A stretch of DNA of 64,000 bases, from the IMG/VR virus record IMGVR_UViG_2571042690_000019, one strand, 5' to 3'. The position numbers and the translations under genes are program-made. This document shows positions 1-56,128 of the stretch, piece after piece (positions within the stretch are counted from its first letter, which is position 1; every line of letters starts with the position of its first letter). Under the pieces are notes generated by a model. That model did not search any database and was not told where the DNA came from. It was given only the letters and a program-made list of their open reading frames with translations. The DNA comes from a virus. Its lineage: Duplodnaviria; Heunggongvirae; Uroviricota; Caudoviricetes.

Positions 1-1914
1 ATGAGTGAGGCAGAAGCCCGCCCGACTAACTTTATCCGTCAGATCATCGATGAAGATCTGGCCAGTGGTAAGCACACCACAGTACACACCCGTTTCCCGC
101 CGGAGCCGAATGGCTATCTGCATATTGGCCATGCGAAATCTATCTGCCTGAACTTCGGGATCGCCCAGGACTATAAAGGCCAGTGCAACCTGCGTTTCGA
201 CGACACTAACCCGGTAAAAGAAGATATCGAGTATGTCGATTCGATCAAAAACGACGTAGAGTGGTTAGGTTTTCACTGGTCTGGTAACGTCCGTTACTCC
301 TCCGATTATTTTGATCAGCTCCACGCCTATGCGATCGAACTGATCAATAAAGGCCTGGCGTACGTTGATGAACTGACGCCGGAACAGATCCGCGAATACC
401 GCGGCACCTTGACGCAGCCGGGTAAAAACAGCCCGTACCGCGATCGCAGCGTTGAAGAGAACCTGGCGCTGTTCGAGAAAATGCGTACCGGCGGTTTTGA
501 AGAAGGTAAAGCCTGCCTGCGTGCGAAAATCGACATGGCTTCGCCGTTTATCGTGATGCGCGATCCGGTGCTGTACCGCATTAAGTTTGCTGAACACCAC
601 CAGACTGGCAACAAGTGGTGCATCTACCCGATGTACGACTTCACCCACTGCATCAGCGATGCGCTGGAAGGTATTACGCACTCTCTGTGTACGCTTGAGT
701 TCCAGGACAACCGTCGTCTGTACGACTGGGTACTGGACAACATCACCATTCCTGTTCACCCGCGCCAGTACGAATTCTCGCGCCTGAATCTGGAATACAC
801 TGTGATGTCCAAGCGTAAGCTGAACCTGCTAATTAAGTTTGCTGAACACCACCAGACTGGCAACAAGTGGTGCATCTACCCGATGTACGACTTCACCCAC
901 TGCATCAGCGATGCGCTGGAAGGTATTACGCACTCTCTGTGTACGCTTGAGTTCCAGGACAACCGTCGTCTGTACGACTGGGTACTGGACAACATCACCA
1001 TTCCTGTTCACCCGCGCCAGTACGAATTCTCGCGCCTGAATCTGGAATACACTGTGATGTCCAAGCGTAAGCTGAACCTGCTGGTGACCGACAAGCACGT
1101 TGAAGGCTGGGATGACCCGCGTATGCCGACCATTTCTGGTCTGCGTCGTCGTGGTTACACTGCGGCTTCTATTCGTGAGTTCTGCAAACGCATTGGTGTG
1201 ACCAAGCAGGACAACACCATTGAGATGGCGTCACTGGAATCCTGCATCCGTGAAGATCTCAACGAAAATGCGCCGCGCGCAATGGCGGTTATCGATCCGG
1301 TGAAACTGGTTATCGAAAACTACCAGGGCGAAGGCGAAATGGTTACCATGCCGAACCATCCGAATAAACCGGAAATGGGCAGCCGTCAGGTGCCATTTAG
1401 CGGTGAGATTTGGATCGATCGCGCCGATTTCCGCGAAGAAGCTAACAAGCAGTACAAACGTCTGGTGCTGGGTAAAGAAGTGCGTCTGCGTAATGCTTAC
1501 GTCATTAAGGCAGAACGCGTGGAGAAAGATGCCGAAGGCAATATCACCACCATCTTCTGTACTTATGACGCCGACACCTTAAGCAAAGATCCGGCAGATG
1601 GTCGTAAAGTGAAAGGCGTTATTCACTGGGTGAGCGCGGCACATGCGCTGCCGGTTGAAATCCGCCTGTACGATCGTCTGTTCAGCGTGCCGAACCCAGG
1701 TGCTGCGGATGATTTCCTGTCGGTGATTAACCCGGAATCGCTGGTGATCAAACAGGGTTTTGCTGAACCGTCGCTGAAAGAAGCGGTAGCGGGTAAAGCA
1801 TTCCAGTTTGAGCGTGAAGGTTATTTCTGCCTCGACAGCCGCCATTCTACGGCGGAAAAACCGGTATTTAACCGCACCGTTGGGCTGCGTGATACCTGGG
1901 CGAAGTTAGGTTAA
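1..1914 (+). CDS. glnS: glutamine--tRNA ligase (GlnRS) carrying an in-frame 84-codon internal tandem duplication
   Basis: 637-aa ORF; class I aaRS HIGH-type motif (PNGYLHIGH) and VMSKR motif; E. coli GlnRS-like throughout but about 83 aa longer than the canonical ~554 aa because the block IKFAEHH...KRKLNLL occurs twice. Confidence 0.92.
580..1083. repeat. exact tandem duplication, 2 x 252 bp, inside glnS coding sequence
   Basis: nt 580-831 and 832-1083 are identical apart from the junction base; ORF-track peptides 587..787 and 839..1039 are identical. Confidence 0.9.
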
Positions 1915-1937
1915 TAGGTATTTCGCCACATAAAAAA

Positions 1938-1966
1938 GTAAACGCCGCTACTGCGGCGTTTTTTAC
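1938..1966. terminator. bidirectional Rho-independent terminator between glnS and the phage methyltransferase gene
   Basis: CGCCGC-TACT-GCGGCG hairpin flanked by an A-run upstream and T-run downstream. Confidence 0.6.
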
Positions 1967-4257
1967 TTCATTATTGCAATTATATCGTTAGCAACTACAC
2001 GTTTTGACGCCTTGCAGGACACCGACCGTCTGGCTGCCATATGATGTACTTTAAACCCGTTTCCTTCATATAGTTCACGGATGTTTGGCGCACCACTATT
2101 TGTTATCACTACCTTAGCGCCGCGCTGGTGGGCTTCCACCAATAGAGATACCAGCCGTTTCTGTTCGTCGAAACGGAAGCTATTTCCTGAATAACTGGTA
2201 AACCCTTCTGTATCCGGCAGCGGTTCATACGGCGGATCGCAAAAAATCACATCGCCTTCACCAGCCGCCTCGATGACGCCAGCAAAGTCACCTGATACAA
2301 AGGACGTGTTTTTGAGTACGTCATCAGCCAAAAATGCCTCCATCTCTGCATGTGGGAAGTAGGGCGCTTTGTATTTGCCATACCCCACGTTGAACTCGCC
2401 ATTTTGGTTGTACCGCGTTACGCCATTAAAACAGTGCCGATTAAGGTACAAAAAGGCGGCAGCATGATGTAGCTGGTCATACTCTCCTCTGTTAAATGCC
2501 TCACGCACTTCGAGGTAAGCGTCAGCGTTGTTGTAATTTTGGAAAAAACTATATGACAGCGTGACGAGCGAATGTCCTTCTCGCTGCAATGTCTGATAGA
2601 AGTTAATCAGGTCACCGTTAATATCATTAAGCAGGTTGTGGCGAAATCCTGCATTCGTAAATACAGAACCGCCACCAACGAACGGTTCTATTAACCGCTT
2701 GCCGTGTGGTAGATGCTCAAGCACTGTAGGCAACTCTGAGAATTTACCGCCTACCCATTTGAAGATCGGACGCTCATATTCATCCGGAGTCCGGAGTTTT
2801 CTTGTGTAGGTAATGGTATTTATTTTTTTTGGCTGTTTAGCTTCCACAGTCGCAAGAATGCGACACCCAATCCATTGCATAACAGGAACTGCCATGCTGT
2901 TGCCAATCGCTTTGTAACGCGGCCCGTCAGCAGCGAGCATCGCGGCCTCTTCTTCGCTTAAATCTGGATAGTGATTGCGAAGGTATGCCAGTTCATCTGA
3001 GGAAATTGTTTTACGCTTTTCCGTAGGGATCAACGTATGCCCATCAGGAAAACCTTGCAGCCTTTCACATTCGACAGGGGTAAGACGGCGGACAGCTACT
3101 TCTGCGTTTCTTACTTCATAGCAAACGGCTGTTGGATTTTGAGCCATTAGAGATGGTGAAGTATTCTTAGTTGCAGCATGTTGTGTACCGCTCATACGCT
3201 CAGGAAAAGCTAATGTAACAAGATGCTCATGGCTTTCTTGCTCACGCGCCCGCAATGTACCATGCCCCTCTGACCAAAAACCTGCTCCTGTGCTGCTAAA
3301 AACGGCAAGGTCAGTGGCATCTTTAAAGTCTCTTGCCTTTACTGTCGATGCGGTTTCATCGTCAATATATTCCCCAAATGCCGCCATCCTGAAAGCGTTT
3401 ACGGCTTTCGTCGATTTCATACCGGGGGGCATGTCAGCGTGTAGGCATGGATTTAGGCTTTCGCCACTGATTGCAGCGCCATTTGCAATAATGGCGGAAG
3501 CGATTTCCTTCTTTTTTCGGCTCGGCGCAATATTCCGGCGCACGCCTTCGAACTCAAAAAGTATCGTTGCGGGATCGAGGTCTGTTCGAGCACTTGCGAC
3601 AACAAACACGCGTCGGCGTCGTTGCGCCACTCCGAAGTATTGGGCATCAAGGATTCTCCAGGCCACTTTTCGCTGCGGTCCATAAATACAACCACACTGC
3701 GGCCACTTTGGAGCATGGCAACTGGTTTTGACATCCCACCGCCAGAACGCGTTACTTTTTCGCGATTCAGGTCGAGCACCTGGTTCGAATGGCGCATCTT
3801 CTCCAGCCAATCCGGCAAGGAAACATCCGAAGGCGTTATCTGCCGATGACAAGACTCCTGGGACATTTTCCCAGACGATAACGGCTGGTTTGAGAAATGA
3901 CTCAGCCCGTTTGTCGTCAATTGCATTTGCAAGCTCCACATACTTTAAAGTTAGCGCGCCACGCTCATCATCAAGCCCACCACGTAATCCAGCGATACTG
4001 AATGCCTGACAAGGTGTTCCCCCGACGAGCACATCAGGGGATTCGATTTCCCCAGCCAGGACTTTTTTGGCAAGTTTTGTCATATCGCCAAGGTTGGCGA
4101 CATGGGGCCAGCGGTGCGCAAGAACGGCAGATGGAAAAGGCTCGATTTCAGCAAACCACGCCGGACGCATACCCAACGGTTCCCAGGCAATGCTCGCTGC
4201 TTCAATTCCACTGCAAACTGAACCATATCTAAGGTTAACGTTCTGCTTCACCACCAA
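1963..4257 (-). CDS. dmt: bifunctional DNA methyltransferase: N-terminal C5-cytosine MTase fused to C-terminal Dam-like N6-adenine MTase
   Basis: N-terminal part has [12 protein letters not shown] (PC motif), ENVPG and C-terminal RLQGFPD C5-MTase motifs; C-terminal ~280 aa align with E. coli Dam ([19 protein letters not shown]). Symbol by analogy to the P1 hrdC-dmt pair; domain order relative to P1 Dmt not verified. Confidence 0.8.
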
Positions 4258-5140
4258 CGGCCTCCACTAGCGAAGTGAACATCGCGGATAATTCAGCAGT
4301 AAACAGGATAAAGTCAGCGTCAAATCGTTGCGCAACATCCTCTCGATCAATATCGTCGTTCTGGTCGTACAATTCGTCGCTGAACGACAAAGCCTTGATA
4401 CTCATATCGTCATTCAGTCTGAAAAATGCACGGTCTTGCCAGTTAACCGCAACTGTGGTTGCAACCTTACCAGCTTCTATATGACTCATGATCTCGTCGG
4501 ATAGCAGGTCCACTTTTTTGCAGCGGACCGCGCCGCCATCATCAAGCAATGCTTTTAAGGTCGCTTCCTCACCGGCACGGAAACCGTTCGGGAAGCCATT
4601 TTTAATCCAGCCAGTGATGGTCAGTTCTAATGGGTCTTTCGGAGAGAAGGGGACAACGGGCAAGCTGCCAAGCGATTTCCGTAACAAAGCCAGCTGATCC
4701 TCTGCTTTTTTAGCACTGCTGGCCTCGACAAAAACCAGATGATTGCTTCGGTCTATCAGGATTTTAGCTACTGATTTTCTCGTGAAAGCGCGAGGAAGAA
4801 GAGAGTGAAGCACTTCATCCTTCAGCGAATCTTTTTCGGTCTTCTTCAGCTTTCTGTCTTGCTCTTCTTCAAGTTTCAGGATTTTTTTCTGTAACTCTTC
4901 TTTGAGTACTTGAGAAGGTAGGATTTTTTCCTCTCGTTTATGCTGCATCAGAAGAAAACCCTGGTATTCATGGGTGAGGTTGTCGCCAAGAACGGGGGTC
5001 CAACCAGCTTTAGCCATATCCTGAGAACCGCATGGGGTAAACACAAACTTGCTAAGGGCTGCATTTACTTCTGCAGTATCCCAGCTAACTTCGCGTGAAA
5101 GACGATAGATGAAGATATTTTTGAAAGCGACTGATCTCAT
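4235..5140 (-). CDS. rdgC: RdgC-like recombination-associated protein (phage homolog)
   Basis: 301 aa, colinear similarity to E. coli RdgC ([60 protein letters not shown]). Confidence 0.88.
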
Positions 5141-5147
5141 GTCTCAC

Positions 5148-5191
5148 CATTTGTGTTAGAAAATACATATTAATTATCTAACACAAATGGG
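5148..5191. promoter_or_regulatory. inverted pair of operator-like motifs (14-bp perfect inverted repeat CCATTTGTGTTAGA / TCTAACACAAATGG, 16-bp spacer) upstream of the rdgC-dmt operon
   Basis: perfect inverted repeat read directly; each arm carries the TCTAACA core of the dispersed motif. Confidence 0.5.
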
Positions 5192-5199
5192 TGCATTTT

Positions 5200-5853
5200 C
5201 TATCCTTTCTTGAAATCGAAGTTGCCAGCAGTGGCCTGAAAGGTTCCCCCAGCCTTGAAAGCTATGTCCCCGTTAGCGGTGACAGCTATATTTTCCCCAT
5301 TAACATTGATGTTGTTGGCTGATTTGACGTTAACACTCCCTCCTGCATTCACGATTACATCAGCCGGACCAATGATATATATCTGCCCGGACTCATTCAT
5401 GCCAATCCTTGAGCCTGCTGCCGTATTGGCAATTTCATAGCCGCCACCAGCAGTTCGTACTTCAAGAATATTGTTGCGGTGAATAACGAAGTCTTTCGTT
5501 GCTGAGATTTGGGGGCGGGGAGGTGCTCCATCTACTTCCGGCGGCGTCCAGCCGTTGCCTTTGCCAGATGCTTCTGGTGCAACGTTTGGAATTCCTCCCG
5601 GTGCATCCTGAGCGGCACCAACTATCATTGGGCGTCTGGTGTCTATTCGACCGTTAACATCTAAATAAGGAAACTCTACCCAGACCAGGTCACCTTTGAC
5701 TGTAGGTACAAAAGCGTTCCCGATGGGTAACTGGTATTCCGCCCAGGGTAGATCGTCATCAGGAACGCCATTCCAGTCAGGTAAAACACGGACTTGAGCA
5801 CGCATAAGCCCTGCCGGGTGCACAGTTCCAACAATTTGCGCTCTACGCTTCAT
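5200..5853 (-). CDS. hypothetical protein, glycine-rich C-terminal repeats
   Basis: 217-aa ORF in an operon of four stop/start-coupled genes; no family recognised. Confidence 0.55.
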   Translation of the reverse strand: MKRRAQIVGTVHPAGLMRAQVRVLPDWNGVPDDDLPWAEYQLPIGNAFVPTVKGDLVWVEFPYLDVNGRIDTRRPMIVGAAQDAPGGIPNVAPEASGKGNGWTPPEVDGAPPRPQISATKDFVIHRNNILEVRTAGGGYEIANTAAGSRIGMNESGQIYIIGPADVIVNAGGSVNVKSANNINVNGENIAVTANGDIAFKAGGTFQATAGNFDFKKG

Positions 5854-15867: not shown

Positions 15868-16183
15868 ATTGGCAGCCTCCTTTGACTAAGTTAAGGAGCT
15901 ACCGCGTGAGGTTCCAATCTCAATGGCGGTAGCACTGACTGGGTTGGAACTACCGGCGTCAAAGGGAACCGGCCTGCCTTTCGGCAGCCCAGCCAGCACT
16001 ACCATTGATCTCTGAGCTAAACGCTAAGTATGGCTGTGCGATGGCATGACACAAAAAAAGACGCGTTCGGCGTCTGTGTCGCCTTTGACATTATCCGGGG
16101 TTCCAATCCCGGCACCCGTTTTTCTAAGGTGCCGTAGAAATATACCCCACGATAATGCCATGGCGCAACAGTCAGTATTTTAT

Positions 16184-34729: not shown

Positions 34730-34910
34730 TAAAATGCCGATTTTTTTTAATCCATCATAGATTGATGATGACCAGTAACACGTTGCCTTCATGGTCTTTA
34801 ATTTGCGAAGTGTGGTTTCTACGGTTGGTTTTCTAAAATTGATGACAAAAAATCACAGTTCGATCCTTTACTCACTCTGTTATTCGACATAAATTTGTCA
34901 TAGTAATTTT

Positions 34911-34925
34911 ATGTTAGAAAACTAA
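34911..34925 (-). promoter_or_regulatory. operator-like motif TTAGTTTTCTAACAT immediately upstream of gene 34940
   Basis: dispersed conserved motif 15-29 bp before ATG. Confidence 0.45.
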
Positions 34926-34939
34926 ATCGAGTAGGAATA

Positions 34940-35977
34940 ATGAGTAAGAAGTCGATCGAGAAAGAGTACAAACGGTTCCTGCAAACCGCTGAACGGTGGA
35001 AAGAGCTGGTGGTCGCAAACTCTGTTTTCCATGATACCAGTTATGCTGGCGAGGAATTCCGCCATGTTGCATTAACGCATGACCAAAACATATTAGAAGA
35101 AGCTGAAAAATGTCTTGCTGAATGGAAAGCCTTCGTTGACATGTGCCGCGATGCCGACGGCAAAGCGTCGAACATTGTTGAGTCTGTATATTCTCCGATC
35201 CCATTCATCATTGAGGACACCAATCAAAGCACGCATGTCGTTGTGCAAAGCGCTACAACAACACGTACATTTACACGTGAACAATTGCTAAAAAAATACG
35301 ACAAAATCATAAAGAAAAGCCTTAAAAATAGGGTTTTTTCTCAAATCGTAGGTGATCTTGAAGAAGAACAGCGCTTCTTTGAAGCTGAGCCTGAAGGCGA
35401 GATCTACCGGGCGCGTAAAGAGGCATATACAGATGTTGTGCTGACAACAAACATCGAAGGCAGCAATGCCCTTTCTCGCTTTAGAGTTGGCGCACATGGT
35501 GCATTGGTTTTCGCAAGACTACCGAAGACAACGATCCCCGTTGTCAATAATGTTGGTGAACGCCGGAGCATTACAATTTATTCTGGCGTCGAATCGGTAC
35601 CTTGCAGCCTTCTCGGCGATTTTAACTTATATCGTGTTCGTGACCTGGAAAAACACCAGCCAAGCTATGTTGCGAAGTCGTACATCTTAAGGAACATCGA
35701 TATTCGCAATGAAAGCCTTAAGCAGAAATCCGCTAAGATGCTGGAGGATGCCGATCCGGCTATTCGCCATATCATTGAGCGTAAGATACGTACATCACGT
35801 GAAGCAATGGCAAGGCTGGATAAAATGGATCTGGAATTGTTAGACGTAATGATGGCCTCTGGAGACGACCTGACCGGCATTAAACTGAATGAAGCTCGTA
35901 AAAAATACGGCAAAGCAATCGAAGAACGTTACGGATACACATTCCCCCAAACGCAGTACGCCGCGAAGCTCTGGTAA
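34940..35977 (+). CDS. hypothetical protein at the position of the P1 immunity repressor c1 (between pacB and the lox site)
   Basis: 345-aa ORF with RBS; functional call is by synteny only, no sequence similarity to C1 could be confirmed. Confidence 0.55.
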   Translation: MSKKSIEKEYKRFLQTAERWKELVVANSVFHDTSYAGEEFRHVALTHDQNILEEAEKCLAEWKAFVDMCRDADGKASNIVESVYSPIPFIIEDTNQSTHVVVQSATTTRTFTREQLLKKYDKIIKKSLKNRVFSQIVGDLEEEQRFFEAEPEGEIYRARKEAYTDVVLTTNIEGSNALSRFRVGAHGALVFARLPKTTIPVVNNVGERRSITIYSGVESVPCSLLGDFNLYRVRDLEKHQPSYVAKSYILRNIDIRNESLKQKSAKMLEDADPAIRHIIERKIRTSREAMARLDKMDLELLDVMMASGDDLTGIKLNEARKKYGKAIEERYGYTFPQTQYAAKLW

Positions 35978-37513: not shown

Positions 37514-38877
37514 TAATCATCCTCCGGCGGTTCTATCGCGATATCATCATCTCCGGCGTCATACCCTGCATCAGATGCATCATAATCACCGTAAATTTCA
37601 GCCGTTGCCGAAGGGTCAATATCCAGCTCTTCGTCGTTGGCCTCGAATTCTCCAGCTTTACGCTCGCCATTGCGGTCGTAATCTCCGCACCCCAATTCTT
37701 CAACAATGGTTGCCACATCCGCCCGGCGCTCTGCCAGCCATTGCGGATGGTTAGCCTGAAGCGTTGCAAACTCCCTTGCCTCTTTGTCCAGCTGTTCATC
37801 ATCAACATCATTGACGTCAGAAACAGGTGGTTCGAGAAGAGTGATAGCTTTCGCCGCGCGCGCCGCGAGGATAGCCGGGACGCTGACACCCTGGCGCTCG
37901 ATGTATTCAGCAACACCGATATCATCCAGTTCCTCGCGCTCACGCATACGTATAGCGGCGGCGATAACTCTGGCTGCGCGTGCGTCAGCGCCAATGCGAT
38001 ATTCAATCTCTTTGCCACGCTGTTCGGCCTGTAGGCGTGCTAATTCGAGTTTTTCTCTGGCCTCAGCCTCTTTGAATGCTTGCTGGCGAGCGCTCTGACG
38101 AAGCTTTTCATCCCCCTGTCGCAGCTTTTGTTCGGACTGATATATAGCTGCCAACCTACTGATAAAATCATTCATGTAGTAGGCCGCGTCACTGATTAGA
38201 CCGAGAAGGCGCTGCCCAGGGTGCATTCCTTCTGGCTCTTTATCGCCCAAGGCGTCTATTTCCGCCTGTAGACGTTCGGCCTCCTGATCAACAATGCTTT
38301 GATACTGAAGTGCGCGCTCTTGCGCCATTTGAATTGCTAACCGCAGGTGTTCTTCTGCGCCGTTCTTCATCATATCGCGAGCCACATTCGTAGTTGGCAA
38401 TGTGGCACGCTGCACAGCACCGTCAGGGATCATTGCAGAAGATCCCTCAATTTTTGGGGCGTTTTTATCTTCTTCGGGGATCATTTTCGCCATTTTTTCG
38501 CGCAATGATCTCCTGACAGATTCTTTTATCTCATTGTTATTATTTGAATTATTTTCATGATCCGAAGTTTTCTTTCTCGGCATACTTCGGAAAGAACCTG
38601 CGCCCTGCGAATTGTCAATTTCTGTAAATTTTGTTTTTTCTGCACCCTCTTCCAGCTTTTTTGTTGCTCTTCCCGCCCGTTTTTTTTCAGGTGATTTGGT
38701 GCTTTTTTTTGTTGTCTTTACCTGCGACCGCACCTCATTTTTTTTCATATTGAGATGCTTTCTGGCTGTATTGAAGCTAAGGCCATGCTCCTCACAGTAT
38801 TCCTTTACAGTGATCCCTTTTTCTTCACGCAACGCTATAAAGCGGGCGCGGTGCTCCTCCCAATTAACCAGACTCAT
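37513..38877 (-). CDS. pacA: terminase small subunit-like protein (PacA-like), acidic C-terminus
   Basis: 454 aa directly upstream of and coupled to large terminase; N-terminal HTH-like segment; synteny pacA-pacB-c1-lox-recombinase. Confidence 0.5.
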   Translation of the reverse strand: MSLVNWEEHRARFIALREEKGITVKEYCEEHGLSFNTARKHLNMKKNEVRSQVKTTKKSTKSPEKKRAGRATKKLEEGAEKTKFTEIDNSQGAGSFRSMPRKKTSDHENNSNNNNEIKESVRRSLREKMAKMIPEEDKNAPKIEGSSAMIPDGAVQRATLPTTNVARDMMKNGAEEHLRLAIQMAQERALQYQSIVDQEAERLQAEIDALGDKEPEGMHPGQRLLGLISDAAYYMNDFISRLAAIYQSEQKLRQGDEKLRQSARQQAFKEAEAREKLELARLQAEQRGKEIEYRIGADARAARVIAAAIRMREREELDDIGVAEYIERQGVSVPAILAARAAKAITLLEPPVSDVNDVDDEQLDKEAREFATLQANHPQWLAERRADVATIVEELGCGDYDRNGERKAGEFEANDEELDIDPSATAEIYGDYDASDAGYDAGDDDIAIEPPEDD

Positions 38878-39266: not shown

Positions 39267-39374
39267 TAATCCCCCGGGCAGGAAATGACCGAGGGGATGA
39301 TAATGAGAATGTTAAAACTGTATAGACTGGTAAAAAGATGATTGTATTAGAAAATTAATACTAAATATCTAATG

Positions 39375-55782: not shown

Positions 55783-56128
55783 AGTTACGGCCTCACTAAC
55801 AGGTTTAACAACCTGCTACCCGCTGTCAAACAGGTGGCAGGACGTGACAGGGTTGACAGACTGGCGTTAGTGAAACCAGCAGGCCGAAGCCTCCCCATCA
55901 CGCCCCACCATAATTCGGGCGTAACGTGGTTTACGGACACAAAAATACCGCAATATCGGAAATCTGCGGTTGTCCGCACTAACATTCAGGCTGTCAAACC
56001 TGGTCGCAGAATTTGCTACGACGGCATGAATATAAGCCTGAAAACATGGAAGATCAACTAAAAATTTCAGCAATGGATGACTTCAGTCGATGATGCAGAT
56101 CATACATTCCGATTTAGAAACAGCAAAT

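Follow-up and report, generated by a model that had tools for sequence, protein, structure and literature searches.

The rdgC-dmt locus of the analysed window, by which we mean the whole stretch of 64,000 nucleotides, is very probably the D6-lineage version of the P1 hrdC-dmt early operon, repressed by a C1-type protein and carrying a recombinant dmt gene. The window is a D6-like phage-plasmid of the P1 family, and sequence comparison shows it to be collinear with phage D6 along its whole length. The hrdC-dmt type of module is itself already known, and near-identical copies are annotated in public E. coli plasmids. Over 3.4 kb, the region shows 99.4% identity with E. coli plasmid p702_18_3 (NZ_CP074704), which annotates the two genes as a Dam-family methyltransferase and RdgC and whose products WP_047648400.1 and WP_053919808.1 each differ by three residues from the two proteins of the window; the glnS gene of that plasmid lacks the 252-bp tandem duplication found in the window's glnS. 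Both operon genes lie on the minus strand, and the locus comprises the following features, listed in the order of transcription, with the repressor gene last:

5173..5202, minus strand, sigma-70-like promoter candidate (-35 TAGAAA at 5202-5197, 18-nt spacer, -10 GATAAT at 5178-5173)
5147..5190, no strand, bivalent palindromic operator-like site (two inverted motif copies, perfect 14-bp arms, 16-nt spacer)
4235..5140, minus strand, rdgC/hrdC homolog, 301 aa (PF04381, NF001462)
1963..4257, minus strand, dmt, fused C5-cytosine/N6-adenine DNA methyltransferase (single ORF, Pfam, NCBIfam)
2860..4233, minus strand, C5-cytosine methyltransferase domain of Dmt, aa 9-466 (PF00145, TIGR00675, motifs)
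4192-4215, minus strand, C5 motif I, CSGIE
3997-4023, minus strand, C5 motif GGTPCQAFS, with PCQ within aa 79-87
3856-3873, minus strand, C5 motif WENVPG, with ENV within aa 129-134
3598-3624, minus strand, C5 motif QRRRRVFVV
3043-3090, minus strand, C5 motif of 16 residues
2881-2910, minus strand, C5 motif of 10 residues
2776..2859, minus strand, inter-domain linker, aa 467-494 (60-nt identity bins)
1966..2775, minus strand, Dam-type (D12 class) N6-adenine methyltransferase domain, aa 495-764 (PF02086, TIGR00571, motifs)
2743-2763, minus strand, Dam motif FKWVGGK
2659-2688, minus strand, Dam motif of 10 residues
2368-2442, minus strand, Dam DNA-recognition hairpin
2227-2238, minus strand, Dam motif DPPY, aa 674-677
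1940..1961, no strand, bidirectional intrinsic terminator (9-bp stem, 6 GC pairs, T-run on each strand)
34940..35977, plus strand, 345-aa homolog of the D6 prophage repressor (phrog_1678, E = 5e-170)

The dmt frame runs for 764 aa from a TTG at 4257 to the TAA at 1963-1965 without an internal stop, with alternative GTG starts at 4254 and 4251; PGAP (RefSeq) places the start of the homolog at the GTG at 4251, which gives 762 aa. The sequence-only reading had described one 764-aa protein combining both methyltransferase classes, and this was borne out: Pfam finds PF00145 (E = 7e-37, split into two stretches, of which aa 12-140 scores best) and PF02086 (E = 1e-55, aa 501-745, profile positions 1-252 of 253) in a single uninterrupted frame with no frameshift, and Dmt passes the curated NCBIfam cutoffs of both dcm (TIGR00675, 120.2 bits against 100.65) and dam (TIGR00571, 246.7 bits against 114.85). 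The motifs named in that reading, PCQ, ENV, QGFPD and DPPY, were all located, QGFPD within aa 390-405. The C5 part contains motifs I, IV (PCQ, with the catalytic Cys), VI (ENV), VIII (QxRxR), IX and X (GNS), and its variable target-recognition region, at roughly aa 246-388, differs in length and sequence among relatives and occurs in several versions even in close ones; the pPSS-10_3 version belongs to a protein of 854 aa. The D12 domain is full-length, with FxGxG and DPPY located. It aligns over its full length with E. coli Dam structures (PDB 2G1P and others; E = 8e-57), and KWxGGK, FxGxG, DPPY and most of the DNA-recognition hairpin of the host enzyme (the equivalents of N120, R124 and Y138) are kept, whereas the alignment places the substitutions Y119F, L122V, P134G and R137K in the hairpin of the window, and E. 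coli Dam carries no C5 fusion. Since Dmt misses the cutoff of the E. coli Dam equivalog NF008152 (234.8 bits against 441), it is a member of the Dam family and not an ortholog of host Dam.

Judged from its identity profile, dmt is a recombinant in which a P1-type C5 module has been joined to a D6-type Dam module. In 60-nt bins, the C5 DNA is 90-100% identical to P1 dmt across 2909-4212, mostly 96-98%, while the Dam domain matches D6 orf63, a stand-alone Dam gene, at 94% amino-acid and about 99% nucleotide identity. Between them, the linker at about 2797-2856 is only about 42% identical to P1 and to D6 alike, and this low-identity stretch is the apparent recombination joint. In D6, the same backbone, the same neighbours (glnS, terminator and baseplate gene) and an identical palindrome surround two ORFs where the window has the fused dmt: orf65-orf64-orf63 encode RdgC, a 226-aa phrog_757 protein and the stand-alone Dam. 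The possibility that orf64 is a diverged C5 domain was rejected, as it shows no similarity to the C5 domain that the window has fused in frame from a P1-type source and has no Pfam hit. The PHROG to which orf64 belongs is annotated as DNA methyltransferase.

The likeness to the P1 hrdC-dmt arrangement proposed in the sequence-only reading also holds. Dmt is 85% identical to P1 Dmt (YP_006537.1) over 755 aa, with about 97% identity in the C5 part and only about 70% in the Dam part, which in the window is of the D6 type. The domain order, which that reading had left unverified, is the same in both proteins, the C5 domain of P1 being N-terminal (aa 8-135 onward) and its Dam domain C-terminal (aa 493-725). 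P1 Dmt has a W adjoining PCQ, where all other sequences compared have G. In P1, dmt likewise lies downstream of, and overlaps, an RdgC-family gene, with a repressor-type operator in the upstream promoter region; JL22 and P7 share the rdgC-then-dmt order, whereas in Cronobacter phage JK004 a single additional gene separates them. The P1 operon differs in being uhr-hrdC-dmt, transcribed from Pdmt, with uhr as an extra first gene that the window lacks; its Odmt/Op68 is monovalent, whereas the operator of the window is bivalent, palindromic and of different sequence; and it lies beside a divergent gene, whereas the operon of the window is directly downstream of a co-directional baseplate gene. The uhr gene and the monovalent Op68 of P1 thus amend the earlier description, as do the minus coding strand and an operator that is not of P1 sequence.

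Upstream of dmt, the RdgC homolog that had been proposed there covers the PF04381 domain over its full length (E = 6e-102, profile positions 3-298 of 298) and scores 386.5 bits against NF001462 (cutoff 330). RdgC is a dsDNA-binding modulator of RecA. The 3' end of rdgC overlaps the dmt start by 17-23 nt, depending on the start codon chosen, and the GGAGG Shine-Dalgarno sequence of dmt (4261-4265) lies inside rdgC. The 5' part of rdgC is about 100% D6-like, while its 3' half is about 70% identical to D6 and about 55% to P1.

In front of the operon, the arms CCATTTGTGTTAGA (5147-5160) and TCTAACACAAATGG (5177-5190) match perfectly, as had been noted from the letters. The accompanying claim that this repeat belongs to a dispersed operator motif stood for the core and failed for the whole: the core TGTTAGAAA occurs 11 times in the window against 0.60 expected (18-fold; none of 100 shuffles reached 11), but the full 14-mer, tried as the dispersed motif, has 4 matches at up to three mismatches against 5.9 expected and is not enriched. 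The palindromic geometry GTTAGA-N16-TCTAA is found at four places, which give 7 strand-hits where 0.03 would be expected. Motif sites precede the homologs of c1, lpa, repL, icd/ant, ref and rdgC-dmt; the site at icd/ant adjoins the C4 RNA and its a1b1 target, and the one upstream of lpa was recovered by the scoring matrix though absent from the set used to build it. An E. marmotae relative has the same motif at equivalent places. Because the core precedes the c1, lpa, repL, icd/ant and ref homologs, the palindrome at 5147-5190 is most likely a D6-type C1 operator, a prediction by analogy. The P1 record gives C1 operators at dmt (Op68) and ban (Op72ab). The P1 genes c1, lpa, repL, icd/ant and ref are likewise under C1 control. 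Both sets of sites are spread over the genome before early and immunity genes, and P1 Oban (Op72ab) likewise consists of two inverted half-sites over a promoter. The half-sites themselves differ (TGTTAGAAAAnTAA in the window, ATTGCTCTAATAAATTT in P1), and so does the geometry, with a 16-nt spacer between cores in the window and 17-mers overlapping by 6 bp in Op72ab. As a candidate, the asymmetric 17-bp P1 consensus was rejected: it has no site at up to three mismatches in the 64 kb and only two at four mismatches, neither near the operon. The palindrome is therefore C1-operator-like by position and is not a sequence member of the P1 C1 operators.

The presumed operator-binding protein is the 345-aa repressor, whose counterpart in D6 is orf1 ('prophage repressor, similar to P1 C1') and has an operator copy at 34908-34930, just upstream of its own gene. 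It scores only 25.9 bits against NF041318 (phage_rep_C1). With a repressor only remotely similar to P1 C1 and an operator unlike the P1 consensus, the label 'C1 operator' rests on positional analogy. The candidate promoter of the operon matches the consensus at 9 of 12 positions, a score that taken by itself is not above chance in the region; its hexamers lie in blocks that divergent relatives keep unchanged or almost unchanged, the first A of TAGAAA being C in three lineages, and its -10 falls within the upstream operator half-site. At the other end, the bidirectional terminator is common to the convergent glnS and dmt genes and begins beside the dmt stop codon. The late promoter annotated inside the P7 gene as 'LPdam2' was considered and set aside, its sequence being unconvincing. 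Since only 59 bp, without a terminator, separate the operon from the upstream baseplate gene, which shares its strand, read-through late transcription could also express the operon.

While the phage persists as a plasmid prophage, both half-sites at 5147-5190 would be occupied by the 345-aa C1-type repressor, and as these half-sites cover the -10 hexamer and start point of the candidate sigma-70 promoter, the operon would not be transcribed. Infection or induction would activate the promoter, yielding a single rdgC-dmt message that ends at the terminator at 1940-1961; translation of dmt is likely coupled to that of rdgC, since both the GGAGG and the start codon of dmt fall within the 3' end of rdgC. 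The Dam domain would methylate the N6 of adenine in GATC, a prediction based on its 70% identity to the Dam part of P1, reported to methylate GATC, and on the full-length match to E. coli Dam. This activity would free phage DNA maturation and pac cutting from dependence on host Dam. For growth in Dam-minus hosts, P1 needs the Dam activity of its dmt, since methylation of pac is required (review PMC12707154); where the host is Dam+, neither hrdC nor dmt of P1 is essential (PMC10695390). The C5 domain is predicted to methylate a cytosine motif set by its variable region, and would act as an orphan, anti-restriction type of modification without a partner nuclease. Literature searches for the cytosine specificity of P1 Dmt found nothing.

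Whether the C5 half works at all bears directly on this proposal. An inactive C5 relic in a protein acting as a Dam methylase only would agree with the P1 and P7 database records, where the C5 activity of P1 Dmt is given only as 'perhaps', with the RefSeq name, which gives the fused protein as a Dam-family enzyme only, with deletions in the variable region of relatives (AR_0119, 718 aa; P7, 672 aa) and with D6, which has no PF00145 domain at the equivalent position. We consider it improbable: none of the six C5 motifs checked is damaged, among them PCQ with its catalytic Cys, ENV, QxRxR and GNS, and relatives keep these motifs unchanged even where aligned identity falls to 59% (47% by tblastn), Cronobacter phage JK004 being an example; changes cluster in the variable region, the pattern to be expected if working enzymes change target, and the score against the dcm model is above its curated cutoff. 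That two separate methylase genes have been read as one by accident, or that the protein supplies the methylase of a restriction-modification system, is extremely improbable. In D6 the position is indeed divided between orf63 (Dam) and orf64, but the latter is unrelated to the C5 domain, and the annotations of several independent plasmids, like those of P1, JL22 and JK004, give a fused protein of the same length. The linker contains no Met, and by ORFs, Pfam and RefSeq annotation no nuclease gene adjoins dmt, its neighbours being glnS, rdgC and baseplate genes. For the sequence of the window, this alternative is refuted by the continuous frame of 764 codons and the lack of a nuclease; with no cognate restriction endonuclease gene beside the methylase, the locus does not qualify as a Type II restriction-modification system. 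A fused Dmt with a functional, orphan C5 domain remains the preferred reading.

A different question is raised by the palindrome, in which the inner 9 bp of each arm and the adjacent AT-rich bases are invariant in eight lineages, while the outer 5 bp covary. The outer bases (CCATT, CCAAT, TTCAA, AAAAC, CAGAAC-type and CCTAA) stay complementary in 39 of 40 cells across the eight lineages, with one to five double changes at each pair and G-U pairs in some cells, and their covariation score is 0.338 against 0.101 in shuffles (none of 500 reached it) and at most 0.162 in slid controls. Contacts specific to the repressor of each lineage were rejected as the main source of this covariation, because those bases do not recur in the remaining operators, whether of the window or of the E. 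marmotae plasmid. Repressor binding does not account for the covariation, which counts against a pure operator reading. The element may instead, or in addition, be a nucleic-acid hairpin, a possibility we regard as doubtful. A stable stem-loop in the RNA reading through from the baseplate/tail genes could mask the ribosome-binding site of rdgC, or could influence RNA processing or stability; RNA initiated at the operon's own promoter would begin within the loop and so escape it. The predicted RNA fold has -23.6 kcal/mol (z = -4.26; reached by none of 200 shuffles), in the window the GG of the rdgC Shine-Dalgarno sequence falls within the 3' arm, and the other three palindromic operators in the window have no extended arms; P1, whose operon is not behind a co-directional late operon, has no such palindrome. 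Against this, the sample is eight sequences in about four lineage groups, template-switch correction of quasi-palindromes can yield complementary arms without selection, Rfam has no family at the palindrome, and masking is at odds with the E. marmotae lineage, where the arm contains no clear Shine-Dalgarno sequence. An intrinsic terminator was ruled out, as no T-run or U-tract follows the stem. A dual-purpose element, at once a bivalent DNA operator and a selected 14-bp RNA hairpin that insulates rdgC-dmt from late expression through a masked ribosome-binding site or directed RNA processing, would have compensatory changes keep the arms complementary beyond the protein-binding core; we rate this combined reading as rather unlikely.

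The preferred reading, a C1-type-repressed rdgC-dmt operon, leaves the covarying palindrome as a small, testable regulatory puzzle, and the derived operator motif offers a usable map of the D6-type immunity regulon. Some D6-like phage-plasmids carry a P1-type fused methylase and not the split D6 arrangement, and this methylase arose by module exchange. The several versions of the C5 variable region fit phage-plasmids that swap methylation specificity to evade host restriction; as such elements often bring resistance genes with them, a swap of this kind could have consequences for their host range.

The rdgC-dmt module is the D6-lineage version of the known P1 hrdC-dmt operon and is already annotated in public plasmids. 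All of its genes are located on the minus strand, and the 3' end of rdgC, the hrdC homolog, runs into the start of dmt, the fused C5-cytosine/N6-adenine methyltransferase gene, with an overlap of 17-23 nt.

Features of the rdgC-dmt module
1940-1961, both strands: predicted terminator hairpin, 9-bp stem, T-run on each strand
1963-4257, minus: dmt, 764 uninterrupted codons from a TTG start
4254 and 4251, minus: in-frame GTG codons after the TTG
4261-4265, minus: GGAGG Shine-Dalgarno of dmt, 6-9 nt from the GTG codons
4235-5140, minus: rdgC, 301 aa
5202-5173, coding strand (minus): sigma-70-like pair, TAGAAA, 18-nt spacer, GATAAT
Dmt N-terminus: PF00145 (C5 methyltransferase), Pfam, E 7e-37, two stretches
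Dmt C-terminus, aa 501-745: PF02086 (D12 N6-adenine methyltransferase), Pfam, E 1e-55

In a near-identical RefSeq homolog of dmt, PGAP places the start at the second GTG, giving 762 aa. The upstream neighbour of rdgC is a homolog of the P1 baseplate gene 5, on the same strand after a 59-bp gap, while the hairpin at 1940-1961 appears to be a terminator common to dmt and the convergent glnS. The sequence-only reading had described one 764-aa protein of both methyltransferase classes behind an RdgC homolog; this observation is confirmed and its interpretation supported, as both classes are present and no frameshift splits the gene. Dmt passed the curated NCBIfam cutoffs for dcm (120.2 bits vs 100.65) and dam (246.7 vs 114.85), and its C5 motifs are complete, comprising CSGIE (I), GGTPCQAFS (IV), WENVPG (VI) and QRRRRVFVV (VIII) as well as IX and X. 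The C-terminal part contains the Dam motifs, including DPPY, and aligns over its full length with E. coli Dam structures (E 8e-57). The gene upstream encodes a complete RdgC (PF04381, E 6e-102; NF001462, 386.5 bits vs a cutoff of 330).

The window is collinear with phage D6, a glnS-carrying plasmid prophage of the P1 family. The nearest record, E. coli plasmid p702_18_3 (99.4% identity over 1900-5300), annotates a 'Dam family site-specific DNA-(adenine-N6)-methyltransferase' and 'RdgC', each three residues different from its window counterpart, and at least 80% of the region is covered in eleven E. coli records. P1 Dmt (754 aa) shares 85% identity with the window protein, and P1 dmt likewise lies behind hrdC and overlaps it, which upholds the proposed likeness. 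The domain order, previously left open, was settled by a domain search on P1 Dmt: C5 extends from aa 8-135 onward and Dam occupies 493-725, as in the window and not reversed. P7, JL22, RCS47 and SJ46 also carry a C5-Dam fusion, as does Cronobacter phage JK004 at 47% identity, where a uhr-sized gene, an rdgC-sized gene and one extra gene precede it.

The plasmid-borne glnS (1-1914) contains a perfect 252-bp in-frame tandem duplication at 580-1082 (2.0 copies at 100% identity), which lengthens the protein by 84 aa, to 637 aa vs 553, and is absent from D6 and p702_18_3 glnS. Against E. coli genomes, a junction-spanning query aligned solely in two disjoint parts. Either a recent mutation or an artefact of assembly could account for the duplication, which probably impairs the enzyme.

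Identity to D6 and P1, computed per 60-nt bin on the gene strand, varies within the module.

Identity along the module
5260 to ~4750: palindrome and 5' half of rdgC, practically the same as D6
~4750 to 4235: 3' half of rdgC, ~70% to D6, ~55% to P1
4212 to 2909: C5 domain, matching P1 dmt at 90-100% (mostly 96-98%)
2856 to 2797: linker, ~42% to both D6 and P1
2796 to 1900: Dam domain plus terminator, matching D6 at ~99%

In D6 the Dam gene orf63 stands alone (94% identity to the window Dam part), and the adjacent 226-aa orf64 has no similarity to the window C5 domain and no Pfam match. Because its C5 part is P1-like and its Dam part D6-like, and because the D6 Dam gene is separate beside an unrelated orf64, the window dmt is, judged by sequence, a natural recombinant of a P1-type C5 module and a D6-type Dam module. 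Since the 3' half of rdgC departs from both phages next to a D6-identical 5' half, a third parental lineage would have contributed this small region. D6 orf64 (D6 3962-4642), which fills the place of the C5 domain and is without counterpart in the window, belongs to phrog_757, annotated 'DNA methyltransferase'.

The C5 variable (target-recognition) region, ~aa 246-388 (window about 3094-3522), differs in length and sequence among close relatives, with at least four versions between invariant flanking catalytic motifs and Dmt lengths of 854, 762 (764 in the window), 718 and 672 aa. Such a pattern points to specificity being exchanged like a cassette or lost. A literature search for the C5 target found no defining paper, and the P1 and P7 database records qualify C5 methylation by Dmt as 'perhaps'. 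The P1 reference (NC_005856) reads VLVWGTPCQ at Dmt codon 74 (window aa 79, 4021-4023), and VLVGGTPCQ is found in the window, JL22, P7, JK004 and four D6-like plasmids; the reference strain thus carries a Gly-to-Trp change three residues ahead of the C5 catalytic Cys. This change could account for the lack of firm evidence that P1 Dmt methylates cytosine. The Dam domain is predicted to methylate GATC. According to a review (PMC12707154), P1 depends on methylated GATC at pac and cannot do without dmt in Dam-minus hosts; hrdC and dmt were non-essential in a normal host by CRISPRi screen (PMC10695390). Because no nuclease gene is adjacent to the module, dmt represents an orphan methylase and not a restriction-modification system. 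Within the pacA homolog, the 5' part packs five GATC sites into about 135 bp (38428-38560), a cluster that recalls the methylation-dependent P1 pac, with hexamers differing from the P1 TGATCA/G repeats.

The operon is preceded by a perfect inverted repeat, CCATTTGTGTTAGA at 5147-5160 with its exact complement at 5177-5190 (14-bp arms, 16-nt spacer), as originally described. Its supposed dispersal holds for the core TGTTAGAAA, with 11 copies vs 0.60 expected (reached in 0/100 shuffles), and not for the full 14-mer. The dispersed consensus is approximately TaTGTTAGAAAAtTAAtTT, and GTTAGA-N16-TCTAA palindromes occur at 5155, 17307, 22560 and 56114 (7 strand-hits vs 0.03 expected). A position-weight scan added the site at 39341, which was outside the matrix-building set. 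Sites were placed by transferring coordinates to the annotated D6 genome.

Putative operator motif sites
5147-5190: palindrome, upstream of rdgC-dmt
17317: upstream of the ref homolog
34908: upstream of the c1 homolog
39341: upstream of the lpa homolog
56123: upstream of the icd/anti-repressor operon, adjoining C4 antisense RNA and its a1b1 target
57328: upstream of the repL homolog

In P1, C1 controls c1, lpa, repL, the icd/ant operon and ref. The P1 record annotates C1 operators at dmt (Op68) and ban (Op72ab), and in an E. marmotae relative with an 80% identical repressor the motif occupies equivalent places. Because the P1 operator consensus is absent across the window and the 345-aa repressor, a homolog of the D6 prophage repressor, bears only a remote likeness to P1 C1 (25.9 bits), the palindrome would work like a C1 operator by analogy, outside the P1 operator sequence family. 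Two separate immI-like regions (15922-16132 and 55830-56035) correspond to the two D6 icd/anti-repressor modules. Both contain a C4 antisense RNA (Rfam RF01695), and each has its own operator copy on the upstream side; one also contains isrK and the other the c4-a1b1 target.

Sigma-70-like matches of the kind found at 5202-5173 are not above chance by themselves. The -10 hexamer is inside a block invariant in eight divergent relatives, and the first A of the -35 is C in three lineages. Since the -10 sits within the upstream operator half-site, bound repressor would occlude it.

Comparison of the palindrome arms across eight distinct lineages revealed no variation in the inner 9 bp of each arm and the adjacent AT-rich bases. 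The next 5 bp outward differ among lineages yet are complementary in 39/40 cells, some as G-U pairs, with one to five double changes per pair and a covariation score of 0.338 vs 0.101 in shuffles (0/500 reach it; slid controls at most 0.162). These outer bases are outside the operator consensus in both the window and E. marmotae, the remaining palindromic operators are without extended arms, and P1 Op68 has no such palindrome. As RNA, the palindrome has a folding energy of -23.6 kcal/mol (z = -4.26), with a 3' arm that overlaps the rdgC Shine-Dalgarno. It is conceivable, and on balance rather doubtful, that the palindrome is also a hairpin acting on transcripts that read through from the late tail operon, which runs in the same direction; transcripts of the rdgC-dmt operon itself would begin in the loop and so escape it. 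Alternatively, the arm complementarity could result from neutral correction of a quasi-palindrome by template switching.

What is mildly new is limited to the mosaic origin of dmt, the diversity of its variable region, the map of D6-type operators derived from the motif and the covariation in the palindrome.
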